Below, piece by piece: positions 5,043 to 13,613 of a DNA stretch of 20,054 nucleotides (positions within the stretch are counted from its first letter, which is position 1; each line of letters opens with the position of its first letter). The position numbers and the translations under genes were made by a program. Source of the DNA: a virus (taxonomy: Duplodnaviria > Heunggongvirae > Uroviricota > Caudoviricetes); IMG/VR virus record IMGVR_UViG_2671180360_000015, positions 1 to 20,054 of that record. The stretch is one strand, 5' to 3'. Under the pieces are notes generated by a model that was given only the letters and a program-made list of their open reading frames with translations, did no database searches and was not told the origin of the DNA.

Positions 5043-5786
5043 TTAACTGGCTTTCTTTTTCGGGCGTCCACGTTTTGCCGGTGTCACGCTCCGGATCTTA
5101 CGCGGGGCGCGGGTGGCCGCTTTGGGCTGCGGCTCCGGCTTCGGTTTCAGCTCCCGCTCCAGTCGTTCAATCTCTTTTTTGACGCCTGCCTGACAGTCGA
5201 GCTGTGTCGCACGTTGCAGGTGAGCCAGCGCACCGGCGGCATCACCACCGTCACGCAGAAACAGACCGGTGATTTTGTGCAGCTTTGCGCGCACTTCATC
5301 AGGCATGTCAGCCGTGGCGGTCAGTTCAAGGGTGTCCGTCAGCAGGCGGGTATCCACAGACTCACCCGCAGCGTGAGCGCGCATGGCCGCAAGCGCCACC
5401 TCCTCGGTGAACATGTACGGCGGGGTGCGGCGGTGTTTACCCGGCATGGTCAGACCGTACTTCAGGGCATAACGGGCAATCTCCAGCGCACCGGCAATAT
5501 CGCCGGTATCCAGACGCCACAGCATGACCGTCATCAGAATGTCATCCTGTGCACCTTTGCCCTGCTCCAGCACGCCATTCACCCACGGCAACCAGAACGG
5601 CAGCAGTTCGCGTTTTTTCGCGGCCTTCAGCTCTTTTGAATAAATCGCTTTCAGTGTGCGCTGGTCTGCGGCGAGCTTAACCAGCATCTGCTCATAGACA
5701 GTTGCATGTCGCAGCGGGGCGGCTTCCCGCTGCGCGGTCATCGCTGCCGAGACCCGCATCATGTGGCGCTGTGCGGGACTCGTCAT
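5043..5786 (-). CDS. M: Terminase small (endonuclease) subunit gpM
   Basis: 247 aa as in P2 gpM; basic C-terminus; synteny. Confidence 0.85.
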   Translation of the reverse strand: MTSPAQRHMMRVSAAMTAQREAAPLRHATVYEQMLVKLAADQRTLKAIYSKELKAAKKRELLPFWLPWVNGVLEQGKGAQDDILMTVMLWRLDTGDIAGALEIARYALKYGLTMPGKHRRTPPYMFTEEVALAAMRAHAAGESVDTRLLTDTLELTATADMPDEVRAKLHKITGLFLRDGGDAAGALAHLQRATQLDCQAGVKKEIERLERELKPKPEPQPKAATRAPRKIRSVTPAKRGRPKKKAS

Positions 5787-7949: not shown

Positions 7950-9722
7950 ATGACCATCACCACAGACACCACTCTTTTACACGACCCGCGTCGTCAGGCG
8001 GCGCTGCTGTACTGGCAGGGATTTTCCGTGCCGCAGATTGCCGCCATGTTGCAGATGAAACGCCCGACGGTGCAGAGCTGGAAACAGCGCGACGGCTGGG
8101 ACAGCGTTGCCCCCATCAGCCGTGTCGAAATGAGTCTGGAAGCGCGGCTGACCCAGCTCATCATCAAACCGCAGAAAACCGGCGGTGACTTCAAGGAAAT
8201 TGACCTGCTCGGACGCCAGATTGAACGACTGGCACGGGTCAACCGTTACAGTCAGACCGGCAACGAGGCAGACCTTAATCCGAACGTCGCTAACCGCAAC
8301 AAAGGCGGGCGTCGCAAACCGAAAAAGAATTTTTTCAGTGACGAGGCCATCGAAAAGCTGGAGCAGATTTTCTTTGAGCAGTCTTTCGAATATCAGTTGC
8401 ACTGGTATCGCGCAGGGCTTGAGCACCGCATCCGCGATATCCTGAAATCCCGCCAGATTGGCGCGACGTTTTATTTTTCCCGCGAGGCGCTGCTGCGCGC
8501 CCTGAAAACCGGTCATAACCAGATTTTTCTGTCGGCCAGTAAAACGCAGGCGTATGTGTTCCGCGAATACATCATCGCCTTTGCCCGGCTGGTTGACGTT
8601 GACCTGACCGGTGACCCGATTGTCCTGGGCAATAACGGCGCAAAACTGATTTTTCTCGGCACCAACTCCAACACCGCGCAGAGCCATAACGGCGACCTGT
8701 ACGTCGACGAGATTTTCTGGATCCCGAATTTTCAGGTACTGCGTAAGGTGGCATCAGGTATGGCCTCACAGAGTCACCTGCGCTCGACCTATTTCTCCAC
8801 CCCGTCCACACTGGCGCACGACGCCTACCCGTTCTGGTCGGGTGAACTGTTTAACCGGGGACGCGCCAGCGCCGCCGAACGCGTGGAAATCGACGTCAGT
8901 CATAACGCCCTTGCCGGTGGGCTTCTCTGTGCGGACGGCCAGTGGCGGCAGATTGTCACCATTGAGGACGCCCTGAAAGGCGGCTGCACGCTGTTCGACA
9001 TTGAGCAGCTCAAACGTGAAAACAGCGCCGACGATTTTAAAAACCTGTTCATGTGTGAATTTGTTGACGACAAGGCGTCGGTGTTCCCGTTCGAGGAGCT
9101 GCAACGCTGCATGGTCGACACGCTGGAAGAATGGGAAGACTATGCTCCGTTTGCCGCCAATCCGTTCGGCTCACGTCCGGTATGGATTGGTTACGACCCG
9201 TCACACCGTGGCGACAGCGCCGGATGCGTGGTGCTGGCACCGCCGGTGGTGGCCGGTGGCAAATTCAGAATACTTGAGCGTCACCAGTGGAAAGGCATGG
9301 ACTTTGCCACCCAGGCTGAATCCATCCGCAAACTCACCGAAAAATATAACGTCGAATACATCGGTATTGATGCCACCGGCCTCGGTGTCGGCGTGTTCCA
9401 GCTCGTGCGCTCGTTCTATCCCGCCGCGCGCGATATCCGCTACACGCCGGAAATGAAAACTGCAATGGTGCTCAAGGCAAAAGACGTTATCCGCCGTGGC
9501 TGTCTGGAATATGACGTCAGCGCCACCGACATCACCAGCTCGTTCATGGCTATCCGCAAGACCATGACCAGCAGCGGACGCAGCGCCACCTATGAGGCCA
9601 GCCGCAGCGAGGAAGCCAGCCACGCCGACCTCGCCTGGGCGACCATGCACGCCCTGTTAAATGAGCCACTCACCGCCGGTATCAGCACTCCGCTGACATC
9701 CACCATTCTGGAGTTTTACTGA
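7950..9722 (+). CDS. P: Terminase large subunit (ATPase) gpP
   Basis: Start MTITTDTT at 7950 preceded by GAGG gives 590 aa as in P2 gpP; 1-nt stop/start overlap with Q. Confidence 0.9.
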   Translation: MTITTDTTLLHDPRRQAALLYWQGFSVPQIAAMLQMKRPTVQSWKQRDGWDSVAPISRVEMSLEARLTQLIIKPQKTGGDFKEIDLLGRQIERLARVNRYSQTGNEADLNPNVANRNKGGRRKPKKNFFSDEAIEKLEQIFFEQSFEYQLHWYRAGLEHRIRDILKSRQIGATFYFSREALLRALKTGHNQIFLSASKTQAYVFREYIIAFARLVDVDLTGDPIVLGNNGAKLIFLGTNSNTAQSHNGDLYVDEIFWIPNFQVLRKVASGMASQSHLRSTYFSTPSTLAHDAYPFWSGELFNRGRASAAERVEIDVSHNALAGGLLCADGQWRQIVTIEDALKGGCTLFDIEQLKRENSADDFKNLFMCEFVDDKASVFPFEELQRCMVDTLEEWEDYAPFAANPFGSRPVWIGYDPSHRGDSAGCVVLAPPVVAGGKFRILERHQWKGMDFATQAESIRKLTEKYNVEYIGIDATGLGVGVFQLVRSFYPAARDIRYTPEMKTAMVLKAKDVIRRGCLEYDVSATDITSSFMAIRKTMTSSGRSATYEASRSEEASHADLAWATMHALLNEPLTAGISTPLTSTILEFY

Positions 9723-10756
9723 TGAGTAAGAAAAAAGGGAAAACACCGCAGCCAGCGGTGAAAACAATGACTGCCAGCGCCCCGAAAATGGAAGCATTCA
9801 CCTTTGGTGAGCCGGTGCCGGTACTCGACCGCCGTGACATTCTGGATTACGTCGAGTGCATCAGTAACGGCAGATGGTATGAGCCACCGGTCAGCTTTAC
9901 CGGTCTGGCAAAAAGCCTGCGTGCTGCCGTGCATCACAGCTCACCAATTTACGTCAAACGCAATATTCTGGCCTCGACATTTATCCCGCATCCGTGGCTT
10001 TCTCAGCAGGATTTCAGCCGCTTTGTGCTGGATTTTCTGGTGTTCGGTAATGCGTTTCTGGAAAAGCGTTACAGCACTACCGGTAAGGTCATCAGACTGG
10101 AAACCTCACCGGCAAAATATACCCGCCGTGGGGTGGAGGAGGATGTTTACTGGTGGGTGCCGTCCTTCAACGAGCCGACACCTTTCACGCCCGGCTCCGT
10201 GTTTCACCTGCTGGAGCCGGATATTAATCAGGAGCTGTACGGCCTGCCGGAATATCTCAGCGCCCTTAACTCTGCCTGGCTGAATGAGTCGGCCACGCTG
10301 TTCCGCCGCAAGTATTACGAAAACGGCGCACATGCCGGATACATCATGTACGTCACTGATGCCGTGCAGGATCGCAACGATATCGAAATGCTTCGCGAAA
10401 ACATGGTTAAGTCGAAAGGCCGCAATAACTTTAAAAATCTGTTTCTCTATGCCCCACAGGGGAAAGCCGACGGCATTAAAATTATCCCGCTCAGTGAAGT
10501 GGCAACGAAGGACGATTTTTTTAATATCAAAAAAGCCAGCGCCGCTGACCTGCTGGACGCGCACCGCATCCCCTTTCAGTTGATGGGGGGCAAGCCGGAG
10601 AACGTCGGGTCGCTGGGTGATATTGAGAAAGTGGCAAAGGTCTTTGTCCGCAATGAGCTTATCCCGTTACAGGACAGGATCCGCGAGATAAACGGCTGGC
10701 TCGGTCAGGAGGTCATCCGCTTTAAAAACTACTCACTGGACACTGACAACGGCTGA
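9722..10756 (+). CDS. Q: Portal protein gpQ
   Basis: 344 aa as in P2 gpQ; followed by terminator and cos. Confidence 0.9.
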   Translation: MSKKKGKTPQPAVKTMTASAPKMEAFTFGEPVPVLDRRDILDYVECISNGRWYEPPVSFTGLAKSLRAAVHHSSPIYVKRNILASTFIPHPWLSQQDFSRFVLDFLVFGNAFLEKRYSTTGKVIRLETSPAKYTRRGVEEDVYWWVPSFNEPTPFTPGSVFHLLEPDINQELYGLPEYLSALNSAWLNESATLFRRKYYENGAHAGYIMYVTDAVQDRNDIEMLRENMVKSKGRNNFKNLFLYAPQGKADGIKIIPLSEVATKDDFFNIKKASAADLLDAHRIPFQLMGGKPENVGSLGDIEKVAKVFVRNELIPLQDRIREINGWLGQEVIRFKNYSLDTDNG

Positions 10757-10761
10757 ACATC

Positions 10762-10783
10762 GCCGCCTGCGGGCGGCTTTTTT
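10762..10783 (+). terminator. Rho-independent terminator downstream of Q
   Basis: GCCGCC-tgcg-GGCGGC stem-loop followed by TTTTTT, 6 nt after the Q stop. Confidence 0.6.
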
Positions 10784-10925
10784 ACAACCCGCCATCACGC
10801 CCTCACACGCTCACCACCGCACAAAACAGCCCGCAGACACACCAACGCCCCGGCTAACAATCTAAACGCCATCACGACGCGCTCAGACGCTGAAAAAATA
10901 AAATCAGCACCACCGCCAGCGCGCA

Positions 10926-10944
10926 GTGCTTTCCCCGCCTCGCC
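10926..10944. other. cos: cos site: 19-nt cohesive-end sequence of P2 (window minus strand reads GGCGAGGCGGGGAAAGCAC)
   Basis: Exact reverse complement of the recalled P2 19-nt cohesive end; about 190 bp to the left (10757..10944) also matches the recalled P2 left-end sequence; position between Q and the old/tin-equivalent locus. Confidence 0.8.
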
Positions 10945-11104
10945 CGCCCGCTTCATGGGGCGGTTTTAATGCAGTTGCATTACCATACAGAAGTACTGCC
11001 ACGTCTGACAATTCATAGCTAGAATGTATAGCATATGTTGCATGCAAAATAATGCATATAAAGAATGCTTTTCACTCAATACTTCATCATACGATTTTGT
11101 TGGC

Positions 11105-11887
11105 TCATTTTAGAAGCCCTATTATAGCTGCAATCATACTTCCTACGCCGCCGACTGCTGCGAAAAAAGTAGCCCAAAACATTTTCTTCTGAGTACTCAA
11201 ATTCTCTCTGTACCGCACCTCATCTTTATTGAATGTAGATATTGTGTTCAGTGCCTTTCCTGTTGGCCTAAATCCACTACTTGTTTCAACAAGATCTCCA
11301 TTCTGAACAAGAGAATTCAGGCATAAACGAAGCTCTTTACGCATCCTGTTTTTATCGTCATGGTATACCCATAAACTACCAGCGACTTCGGTCATTATTG
11401 AAAACTCACTAAACACAGTTTGAGCATCCCATTCACGATACATTCTTATAATCGTTGAGAGAACAAACATCACATCAGTTATTTCTTTTTTTTGCTGTCG
11501 ATAAATATATTTTTCACGACTAAACTTTATATTTTCATAATTAGACTTTACTCTAAAGAACAACTCCCTTAAAAATGTTAAATCATTTAAAGAGTTAAAT
11601 CGCAACTCATGCGCACGGTAGTAGTAAACACCAAAAAAAGAATCAGGCGTAACCTCAGAAATATCCAAGCATGAACTTATATGAAATCTACGCTCCTCAT
11701 CATCCCATTTAAAAGCCTTTATCTTCCCATCAACCAAACAGTCAAAGAGGTATTCTGTATCATTTTTATCTTTAATATATACAGAGTACATATCATACTT
11801 AATCGCGTTTTCATATAACAAACTAATACGGCCATCATCTGGCGTTCTTTTCTTATCAAACTTCTTAAGTTGGTTTATAATTTTCAT
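11105..11887 (-). CDS. Hypothetical protein, 260 aa, soluble N-terminal domain with a single C-terminal TM anchor; candidate defence effector
   Basis: Long ORF in AT-rich DNA; C-terminal hydrophobic segment MFWATFFAAVGGVGSMIAAIIGLLK; no recognisable motif; weak SD. Confidence 0.65.
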   Translation of the reverse strand: MKIINQLKKFDKKRTPDDGRISLLYENAIKYDMYSVYIKDKNDTEYLFDCLVDGKIKAFKWDDEERRFHISSCLDISEVTPDSFFGVYYYRAHELRFNSLNDLTFLRELFFRVKSNYENIKFSREKYIYRQQKKEITDVMFVLSTIIRMYREWDAQTVFSEFSIMTEVAGSLWVYHDDKNRMRKELRLCLNSLVQNGDLVETSSGFRPTGKALNTISTFNKDEVRYRENLSTQKKMFWATFFAAVGGVGSMIAAIIGLLK

Positions 11888-11996: not shown

Positions 11997-12770
11997 TCAA
12001 TTATCTATGATTGATATCACCTTACCAGTTTTTATATCAACACGCGCAGCAATCGTCTGTTTCACCACTCCGCCATAAGCATTAGTTCCGCGAAACGTGG
12101 TTTTCACAATGGCATGCGGGTCTTTATTCAAAACCAGATGATATACCGTTGATACATGTTTATAAGATGAATCATCGTTCATATTATCTTTAATTAGTTT
12201 TTCCAATGGACGATAAGAACCATCCCAACCACTAAAATTACTCTGAAATGTATCAAGATTGATTTTATTGTTTAGTGAATTCGGGTCATTTTCATAATCA
12301 TTAAAGCACCACCCAAGAACATCACCGAGTTTCAACTCATCATCTTTGGTAAATGTATATTCACTCATGCAGGCATAAAACGCATCTGACGCGGTGGCTG
12401 GAACTTCCTTAAAATCAATGTAACTATTCACAATATCGTGTCGTGTTTTCTTTGACTCGTTCCGATATTCCTTGAGTGTTTTTTCACCATATTCGAATGT
12501 TTTTTGGACTTTATGTTCTGCAACGGTTGATGTTTCAGTTTTATCAACTGGCTGGCTTTTTTCTGTTGGATAGAGTATTGAACCAATTATGCTCAATACA
12601 AAACCTCCTCCGAGATAAACCGCACTTGCACGTTTGCGGTTTGGCATTCGCACCAGTGATGGCTTGATTAACCCGATGAAGAAAGCAACGAAAAAAGCGA
12701 GTGATAGAAAAGCGATTATAGTATCCATAGCTATCCTTTTTGCATCATCCACATAAAAAATCGACCTCAT
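11997..12770 (-). CDS. Hypothetical membrane protein, 257 aa (243 aa from the start at 12728); two N-terminal TM helices and a ~180-aa C-terminal domain predicted to be periplasmic
   Basis: AT-rich ORF; TM1 TIIAFLSLAFFVAFFIGLI, basic loop RMPNRKRAS, TM2 AVYLGGGFVLSIIGSILY; the ATG at 12728 has the better SD (AAAGGAtagctATG). Confidence 0.65.
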   Translation of the reverse strand: MRSIFYVDDAKRIAMDTIIAFLSLAFFVAFFIGLIKPSLVRMPNRKRASAVYLGGGFVLSIIGSILYPTEKSQPVDKTETSTVAEHKVQKTFEYGEKTLKEYRNESKKTRHDIVNSYIDFKEVPATASDAFYACMSEYTFTKDDELKLGDVLGWCFNDYENDPNSLNNKINLDTFQSNFSGWDGSYRPLEKLIKDNMNDDSSYKHVSTVYHLVLNKDPHAIVKTTFRGTNAYGGVVKQTIAARVDIKTGKVISIIDN

Positions 12771-13157
12771 GTTAGCAACAGGATGCTTACTTTTGAATAT
12801 TTGTAAGTTGTTAGCTCTCCAACCTAACTCCTTTCAACCGTCAAAAACCGGCACCAACGCAGTAAAAATATGTCTGTCAACTAACGCCTCGCTACGCTCG
12901 TTGTTCAACCCCGCCAGCCCTGAAAACAAGTTTCACGACTGGCGGCGTTCTCTATCGTCTTCGTGGTGGTGGCGCAACTCTGGACTGACCGATATAGTTA
13001 AGCCGCCCGTAATTATCCCGAACTATTTCGGCACACCCGACCAGCTCATCGGGCGTCAGATTTTCGTTGACCATAATCCGCTGTAAACGCTGAACAATAG
13101 CCATCAGCTTGATATTTTTAGTTTTATGGTGCGGTATCTCGCCTGGTATTCTGTGCA

Positions 13158-13613
13158 TTATCCAAGCCACCCGTTTTGCTTTGCACGCTCCACCTGTTCA
13201 TCTGAATAGTTCCATATCCCATCCGCAGCAACCACTGCCCCGCCAGACAGCCCCGTCTCTGGTTCATACATAACAGCAAGGCCGAGCTGATGCATAATTT
13301 CATGATTAATTCTGAATACCAGACCACGTTCACTAAGTTCTTTCCAGTTCACAATCTTATATGCGCCCGTATTAAGCAGCTCAATACTTAGCAAGACATA
13401 ATCTTCCAGCCAGTCTGACAGGTCAGTAACATCTGTTATCCGGGCTTCAACCTTTCGCCCCGTAAACACACCCTGCACCCATTCATGCAAAATCAACGTG
13501 TCCCCGCGCTCATAATTACGGTCATTTTTCCGAAACTCTGCGCGTTTTTTTCCTTCCAGTACAAGGTCGAAATATTTTGCGTGCAGCTTTACCTCGTGAA
13601 TTTTTGCCATCAT
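13158..13613 (-). CDS. ASCH-like / DUF3850-type protein with C-terminal extension (151 aa)
   Basis: MAKIHEVKLHAKYFDLVLEGKKRAEFRKNDRNYERGDTLILHEW resembles the DUF3850/ASCH signature; start ATG overlaps the gpA stop (ATGA); occupies the P2 orf91 position. Confidence 0.7.
   Translation of the reverse strand: MMAKIHEVKLHAKYFDLVLEGKKRAEFRKNDRNYERGDTLILHEWVQGVFTGRKVEARITDVTDLSDWLEDYVLLSIELLNTGAYKIVNWKELSERGLVFRINHEIMHQLGLAVMYEPETGLSGGAVVAADGIWNYSDEQVERAKQNGWLG

Follow-up and report, generated by a model that had tools for sequence, protein, structure and literature searches.

The window, i.e. the whole 20,054-nt stretch of viral DNA analysed here, carries M, P and Q (portal), followed by a cos site, a cassette of low GC content, a small ORF, an ASCH/DUF3850 homologue of orf91, and gpA. 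Relative to P2, its map is reversed. P, Q, tQ, cos, cassette, orf91-like gene and A follow one another as in P2, the terminase genes lie nearby, and M and P are adjacent as they are in P2. Between positions 10900 and 13200, the window is 100% identical to Escherichia coli strain E70. The features considered below are listed in order of position, and offsets (+n) for P2-type loci are counted from the right edge of the 19-nt cohesive end.

5043–5786, minus strand: gpM, the small terminase (Pfam Phage_term_smal, E = 3.6e-48), one of two candidate readers of the motifs
7950–9722, plus strand: gpP, the large terminase (Pfam, RefSeq annotation), the other candidate reader
10762–10783, plus strand: tQ, rho-independent terminator 3' of the portal gene Q (terminator scan, NC_001895 annotation, alignment)
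10919–10973, no strand: 55-bp cos core common to P2 and P4 (P2/P4 end sequences and alignment)
10926–10944, minus strand: cohesive end (cosN equivalent), GGCGAGGCGGGGAAAGCAC (exact unique match, P2 cosL/cosR, phage record ends)
10945–10968, plus strand: right-hand conserved core YGCCCGCTTCRYGGGKCGGTTTTA, of high information content in 71 flanks
10969–10980, plus strand: proximal site, ATGCA at +24 and TGCAT at +31 within palindrome ATGCAgtTGCAT (71 flanks; 186, PSP3 and P4)
10981–11041, no strand: spacer of constant length and variable sequence (low column conservation)
11042–11046, plus strand: distal site 1, ATGCA at +97, inside palindrome TTGCATGCAA (11038–11047)
11052–11056, plus strand: distal site 2, ATGCA at +107 (ATGCAT 11052–11057), exactly 10 bp after site 1
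11065–11069, plus strand: distal site 3, degenerate ATGCT at +120 (consensus at +113 to +121: ATGCAT or TGCATGCA)
11070–11104, minus strand: 3' untranslated stretch from the stop of cassette gene 1 to the cos array, with no minus-strand terminator-like hairpin
11105–11887, minus strand: cassette gene 1, 260 aa, phrog_7611 of unknown function, directed towards cos (RefSeq CDS in E70, PHROG match)
11997–12728, minus strand: cassette gene 2, homologue of 186 Orf97, directed towards cos (76% identity over 243 aa)

The cos site and its core

Positions 10926–10944 read GTGCTTTCCCCGCCTCGCC, the exact reverse complement of GGCGAGGCGGGGAAAGCAC, which the sequence-only reading had identified as the P2 cohesive end. 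The 19-mer is unique in the window, also with up to two mismatches allowed, gives 0 matches in 100 shuffles, and is annotated in NC_001895 as both cosL (1–19) and cosR (33575–33593), i.e. at the ends of the P2 reference. When window 10550–11350 was aligned with the circularised, reverse-complemented P2 junction, a single block was obtained, 10550–10973, with 401/424 identities (95%), covering the 3' end of Q, tQ, the spacer between Q and cos, the cohesive end, and the 29 bp that follow on the right. The earlier proposal that some 190 bp towards Q match the P2 left end is thus borne out, tQ included, and so is the proposed orientation, with the Q side corresponding to the left end of P2 and the cassette side to its right end. 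The terminator tQ is composed of the stem-loop GCCGCCTGCGGGCGGC (10762–10777) followed by TTTTTT, is identical to that of P2, and has its homologue annotated as tQ in NC_001895. Between tQ and cos, a short segment (10848–10870) departs from P2 far more than the sequence around it (CCGGCTAACAATCTAAACGCCAT versus TCAACGGGCAGACTAAGTGCCGT), and a direct repeat, CGCCATCACG, is present at 10790–10799 and 10867–10876.

The P2 homology stops at 10973, which is also the end of the published 55-bp core of P2 and P4, composed of 7 bp to the left of the cohesive end, the 19 nt themselves, and 29 bp to the right. PMC5694545 and PMC9594776 attribute this core to Ziermann and Calendar (1990). In the window, 54 of the 55 positions are as in P2, with the one difference at 10956 (T; C in P2). 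In the phage collection, 75 records match, and several end physically at the base equivalent to window 10944, exactly so in fiAA91-ss (which has cosL annotated), P24A7b and MET_P1_103_31. As judged from the P2 record, the nicks would fall at 10925/10926 on the plus strand and 10944/10945 on the minus strand, leaving 5' overhangs. The 19-mer, the 55-bp core and the genomic position expected of a P2-type cos are all present at the sequence level, and the region is almost certainly the cos of a P2-like E. coli prophage. As such it is a textbook P2 cos.

The right-hand core together with position 10944 has a GC hairpin followed by a T-run, with a terminator-like score (10944–10963). Terminator-like hairpins aim into cos from both sides: that at 10944–10963 on the plus strand (CCGCCCGCTTCATGGGGCGG followed by TTTTA) overlaps the right nick, and a weaker one on the minus strand (10922–10907) lies just to the left of the cohesive end. 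The pair might shield cos from read-through transcription, or might be mere dyads for protein recognition. We do not retain the 10944–10963 hairpin as a structured element, in view of a G/T variation at +15 that, by eye, is uncompensated at the partner C at +2. A 53-aa ORF on the minus strand (10795–10956) was treated as spurious, since the cut site falls within it and its only Pfam match is below threshold. In several phage records it is named "hypothetical protein"; virion DNA would carry it in two pieces, and it is unlikely to be a gene. Known RNA families were not found in the window.

Short repeats to the right of cos

The segment to the right of cos had been described as AT-rich with several TGCAT motifs, and the GC content does drop from 0.57 to 0.37 across 10900–11200. 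The palindrome TTGCATGCAA at 11038–11047, TTGCAT at 10975–10980 and ATGCAT at 11052–11057 are all where they had been placed. Two elements had been overlooked: an ATGCA at 10969–10973, which together with 10976–10980 forms the palindrome ATGCAgtTGCAT, and the degenerate ATGCT at 11065–11069. The pentamer is not enriched over the window as a whole (48 strand-occurrences versus 63.5 expected), but 6 of the 48 fall within 10969–11057. The first distal ATGCA begins 73 bp after the proximal one, where the commonest distance elsewhere is 72 bp.

Loci with the exact 19-mer were collected from IMG/VR and oriented like the window, and their right flanks, along with those of P2 and P4, were reduced to 71 non-redundant clusters. 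The IMG/VR and genome loci are related elements, and the counts below measure conservation rather than independent origins. Beyond about +36 the flanks cannot be aligned, yet one architecture recurs. It begins with YGCCCGCTTCRYGGGKCGGTTTTA at +0 to +23, and continues with ATGCA at +24 (93% of the flanks) and TGCAT at +31 (59%), which together give ATGCAnnTGCAT. A spacer of roughly 60 bp follows, which varies in sequence and keeps its length, with the proximal and the first distal ATGCA 71–73 bp apart in 53/65 flanks. A distal ATGCA starts at +94 to +98 in 59/71 flanks and another at +104 to +108 in 56/71, the spacing of the first two distal sites being exactly 10 bp in 49 of 61, and a third copy (ATGCA, ATGCAT or TGCATGCA) is present at +113 to +121 in 42/71.

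At +90 to +127, at least one ATGCA is found in 70/71 flanks and at least two in 61/71, with 0.045 expected. The density of the pentamer is 6.7 per 100 bp at +90 to +125, compared with about 0.1–0.2 elsewhere (about 0.13 beyond). An unbiased scan of all 1,024 pentamers over the 71 flanks ranks ATGCA at +96 first (83%); the remaining high scorers are overlapping words of the same sites, and beyond +140 nothing exceeds 15%. In a MAFFT profile, information peaks only at the core and the motifs. The conservation across P2-like cos regions that the sequence-only reading proposed to look for is thus seen, as ATGCA at the fixed offsets of +24, about +96 and +106, and about +116 to +119. Because one copy or none is found in 10/71 flanks, and because the third site of the window is degenerate, no single site is indispensable. 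On this comparison of flanks, the TGCAT copies first noted in the window are members of a conserved, cos-linked set and are not specific to the cassette.

The same layout is found at 32 loci with a cos-type right flank among one-genome-per-species contigs, mostly from named enterobacterial genera (Yokenella, Kosakonia, Phytobacter, Citrobacter, Mangrovibacter, Erwinia, Pantoea, Raoultella and others), with a few in MAGs or in assemblies labelled otherwise. As for the spacer, the GC-rich inverted repeat CGCGCCAGCnCTGGCG was considered as a general feature and rejected, as a perfect stem of at least 6 bp is present in only 18/71 spacers and in 10/71 control segments; 186, PSP3 and some others have this repeat, the window does not. 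In a sizeable minority of the elements, namely 186, PSP3, P4 and many IMG/VR loci, the GC-rich inverted repeat CCGCGCCAGCnCTGGCGnCG occupies the middle of the spacer, at +47 to +66; the window and P2 are without it.

Among the named relatives, P2 has the same cohesive end and the core in the same place, between tQ/Q and the right-end accessory genes. Beyond +29, its sequence is unrelated to the window, with the old-tin promoter and genes where the window has two unrelated genes directed towards cos, and P2 is without the TGCAT that forms the second half of the proximal palindrome. Phage 186 (NC_001317) belongs to a different genus and differs from the window at 2/19 positions of the cohesive end, but has the architecture of the window, with ATGCAgtTGCAT at +24, ATGCA at +96 and +106, and TGCATGCA at +116. 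In 186, orf97 is transcribed towards cos, as is the 76% identical copy in the window; no counterpart of the 260-aa gene separates orf97 from cos there, and the terminator t95b, annotated at about +161, is missing from the window. The layout of the array is also shared by PSP3 and Klebsiella phage Kp4852-2. P4 has no other homology to P2, encodes no terminase and relies on that of P2, yet it carries the array (gcATGCAaagccATGCAccttatcgATGCAT), which sits in the interval from psu to cos; P4's own hotspot is on the other side. A pair of the ATGCA sites of P4 (11490–11535) forms an 11-bp inverted repeat, AAAGCCATGCA and TGCATGGCTTT, followed by a T-rich run, which is likely to be the psu terminator doubling as part of the cos array.

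Position and strand of the motifs track cos in P2, 186, PSP3, P4 and about 100 further loci. HP1 and K139 end in a baseplate gene instead of an accessory region and are not comparable. In Fels-2, ST340phi10.2 and a P88-like record, the next gene begins about 15–90 bp after Q with no cos-like core in between, and YenM_31.17 and Burkholderia phage CEP1 have no recognisable array.

Candidate readers and alternative explanations

A second, enterobacterial lineage of Peduoviridae has nearly the same geometry, built from a different pentamer. In Enterobacter phage phiT5282H (Novemvirus), the Q of which is 45% identical to that of the window, a cos-like core, CCCCCGTCACCTGCGC, is located downstream of Q. 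Among the related records are those of E. coli phage P88 and a Citrobacter phage, and the hosts of the lineage include E. coli, Enterobacter and Citrobacter. In 57 non-redundant flanks, with the 3' end of CCCCCGTCACCTGCGC, the 16-nt search pattern, as the reference for offsets, GTGCA is found at +21 in 95%, with further copies at about +93, +103 and +113 and a successive spacing of 10 bp in 69/73 intervals. The two pentamers are close to mutually exclusive: ATGCA is absent from the array region in 52/57 flanks of the GTGCA lineage, and GTGCA is absent from it in 70/71 P2-type flanks. For the GTGCA lineage, the position of cos is putative, based on resemblance and on the location downstream of Q, the record termini being uninformative on this point. 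In phiT5282H (locus L258, positions 2480–2625) and loci L260–L379, the putative core GGGCTGTTCCCCCGTCACCTGCGC is followed by a T-run and GTGCA at +21; the triple GTGCA of the phiT5282H type, at about +93, +103 and +113, has copies exactly 10 bp apart and is preceded by an A-run.

Phage phiCTX (NC_003278) resembles the P2-type loci in that short repeats flank cos at comparable offsets in its attP-cos-ctx region, but its pentamer reads CTGCA/CTGCG, and its cohesive end, 21 nt long, has another sequence. At its right end (L249:480–781, minus strand), these pentamers are located at +24, +33, +79, +95 and +105 from the 21-nt cohesive end. The GenBank record of phiCTX annotates repeats R4, R5 and R6 across cos, by which no identity with the CTGCR elements is implied.

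Since different pentamers are found in two lineages with overlapping host genera (E. coli, Enterobacter, Citrobacter and others), we argue for a phage-encoded reader. From their sequences, the only candidates among packaging-related DNA-binding proteins would be the terminase subunits gpM and gpP. The N-terminus of gpP has a helix-turn-helix (Terminase_5/HTH_23, residues 22–79 of the ORF as translated; Pfam). A sequence search for relatives of gpM and gpP with a solved structure found none. We consider it rather likely, from the conserved geometry and the lineage-specific pentamers, that the ATGCA array serves as a recognition element for terminase. The best explanation overall, and a likely one, is that the region is a prophage cos in its circular, integrated form, equipped with a cosB-like terminase array.

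According to this model, the terminase formed by gpM and gpP would nick on either side of 10926–10944 in a staggered manner, producing the 19-nt 5' cohesive ends. Recognition would probably need more than the 55-bp core, and would involve the proximal dyad ATGCAnnTGCAT at +24 to +35 as well as the distal array, at about +96 to +123, of two to three ATGCA on one strand, whose 10-bp spacing puts them on the same helical face. Between the two, the spacer would be fixed in length and free in sequence. The module could thus act as a cosB-like terminase-binding region that positions the enzyme on the nicking site, and P4, by copying it, would have its DNA packaged by the terminase of the helper. When a longer P4 packaging signal replaced a short one, cosmid transduction increased roughly 10^3- to 5x10^4-fold (PMC9594776). 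This gain is a hint that the array may take part in packaging.

The cos of lambda is built in a similar manner, with the nicking site flanked on one side by a region of about 120 bp that holds one proximal and several distal short repeats. The sites R3, I1, R2 and R1 of lambda cosB are bound by gpNu1, the small terminase subunit, and by IHF. As in lambda, several short repeats are located at conserved positions on one side of cos in the 71 and 32 flanks, but an IHF site between proximal and distal repeats is not found, with the consensus WATCARNNNNTTR present in 0/71 spacers. The P2-type repeats are 5 bp long, compared with 16 bp in lambda, and strictly phased at 10 bp, the small terminase (Phage_term_smal) belongs to another family than that of lambda, and the overhang is 19 nt instead of 12 nt. 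Unlike lambda, P2 packages monomeric circles. The cosB of lambda sits on the end that is packaged first, and in this respect the analogy with P2 may be inexact. By analogy, lambda cosB is the closest functional analogue of the extended module, but the P2-type module falls outside that family.

A reading in which the ATGCA sites bind a host protein, or confer anisotropic bendability through TG/CA steps every 10 bp, and are not read by terminase, agrees with the phasing and with the spacer of conserved length, both of which would suit any bending or wrapping mechanism. Lambda cosB itself uses IHF, and the TGCA core common to both lineages is compatible with bendability. A shared host factor would not, however, predict that ATGCA and GTGCA are almost exclusive in lineages with overlapping host genera, and the spacers have no IHF consensus; we regard this reading as unlikely. 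We assign still less weight to the motifs being transcription signals, i.e. terminators or promoter elements for the genes beside cos, which corresponds to the earlier idea of a 3' boundary of the cassette. Sites 2 and 3 of P4 do form a hairpin with an 11-bp stem and a T-rich run after it, just past psu, and site 3 of P2 overlaps a likely -35 element of the old-tin promoter, the annotated starts of which are 150 bp from cos. In most flanks, on the other hand, the sites pair over only 5 bp, the window is without a minus-strand terminator-like hairpin between the ORF stop and cos (11104 to 10945), and t95b of 186 lies further out. Strand and position are also fixed relative to cos whatever the direction of the neighbouring gene, old being transcribed away from cos in P2, while the ORF in the window, orf97 in 186 and psu in P4 are transcribed towards it. 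The P4 hairpin and the P2 -35 overlap look like secondary uses of array sites.

Shared ancestry, by which functionless motifs would have hitch-hiked with the cos core, gains some plausibility from the fact that all of the loci belong to related mobile elements recombining at this hotspot (PMC9122126). In the 71 clusters, however, the spacer and everything past +125 have diverged beyond recognition while the pentamers stay in place, which is a signature of purifying selection and makes this explanation very improbable. Of the roles suggested for the TGCAT copies in the sequence-only reading, that of a terminase site is therefore favoured, while those of a host-factor site and a 3' boundary of the cassette are disfavoured, the motifs being fixed to cos regardless of what adjoins.

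Returning to recognition by terminase, a more far-reaching proposal is that a phased NTGCA module acts as the specificity determinant, equivalent to cosB, of Peduoviridae terminases, with its first base setting packaging-specificity groups. The module would be composed of a proximal site at +21/+24, a spacer of fixed length, and, at about +93 to +123, two to three sites that succeed one another every 10 bp. The groups would be ATGCA for P2, 186 and P4, GTGCA for the P88/Novemvirus type, and CTGCR for phiCTX. We put this forward tentatively, as a doubtful extension of the sequence comparison; if true, the first-base groups would help to decide which satellites a helper can mobilise.

The accessory cassette and the apparent extent of the packaging signal

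The site of the cassette is the cos-proximal hotspot of Rousset et al. 2022 (PMC9122126). The GC content of the cassette is 0.28–0.41. Cassette gene 1 has no Pfam or PADLOC match. As for cassette gene 2, the 186 record states about Orf97 that "expression from plasmid blocks 186 infection"; the homologue in the window begins with a hydrophobic segment that is probably membrane-spanning. The whole two-gene cassette is present in 6 of 5,426 complete E. coli genomes, of which 2,154 match some part of the query, and many more genomes have the Orf97-side half with a different cos-proximal gene. A small conserved ORF on the minus strand (12952–13158; 68 aa in RefSeq; phrog_11386 of unknown function) is located between the Orf97 and orf91 homologues and probably marks the inner edge of the hotspot, the GC content being back at backbone level there.

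The cassette had been placed immediately inside the right end. It does lie at the right end, but not immediately so, as the first 125 bp or so (10945–11069) appear to be a functional extension of cos, and the stop of the first ORF is at 11105. In terms of homology, the variable part begins at about +36 (10981), and other phages match to about 10979–10991; functionally, the best reading of the sequence is that the cassette proper starts after about +125 (window position ~11069). The clusters of spacer plus array co-segregate with downstream gene content, 66/71 being tied to a single downstream cluster, from which exchanges appear to import the spacer and array of the donor together with the cassette. 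The array would then persist because every donor has one.

Ziermann and Calendar are said to have mapped, in 1990, a functional cos larger than the core. In the papers that cite the 1990 study, only the "55-bp core" is given and the phased array is not described, and the phased NTGCA module and its lineage-specific variants may be undescribed.

For the element itself, the cos confirms a standard P2-like prophage, and it fixes the ends of the virion genome, as inferred from P2, and the edge of a known cos-proximal defence hotspot. For the family, the packaging signal of the P2/P4 type appears, from the conservation of its sequence, to reach about 125 bp into the right end, past the usual 55-bp core. 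A signal of this length bears on the design of P2/P4 cosmids and phage-like delivery particles, and on the correct delimiting of hotspot cassettes, while the array bears on the prediction of helper–satellite compatibility from sequence. It also suggests a simple and testable way in which the P2 terminase, structurally uncharacterised, may recognise its DNA.
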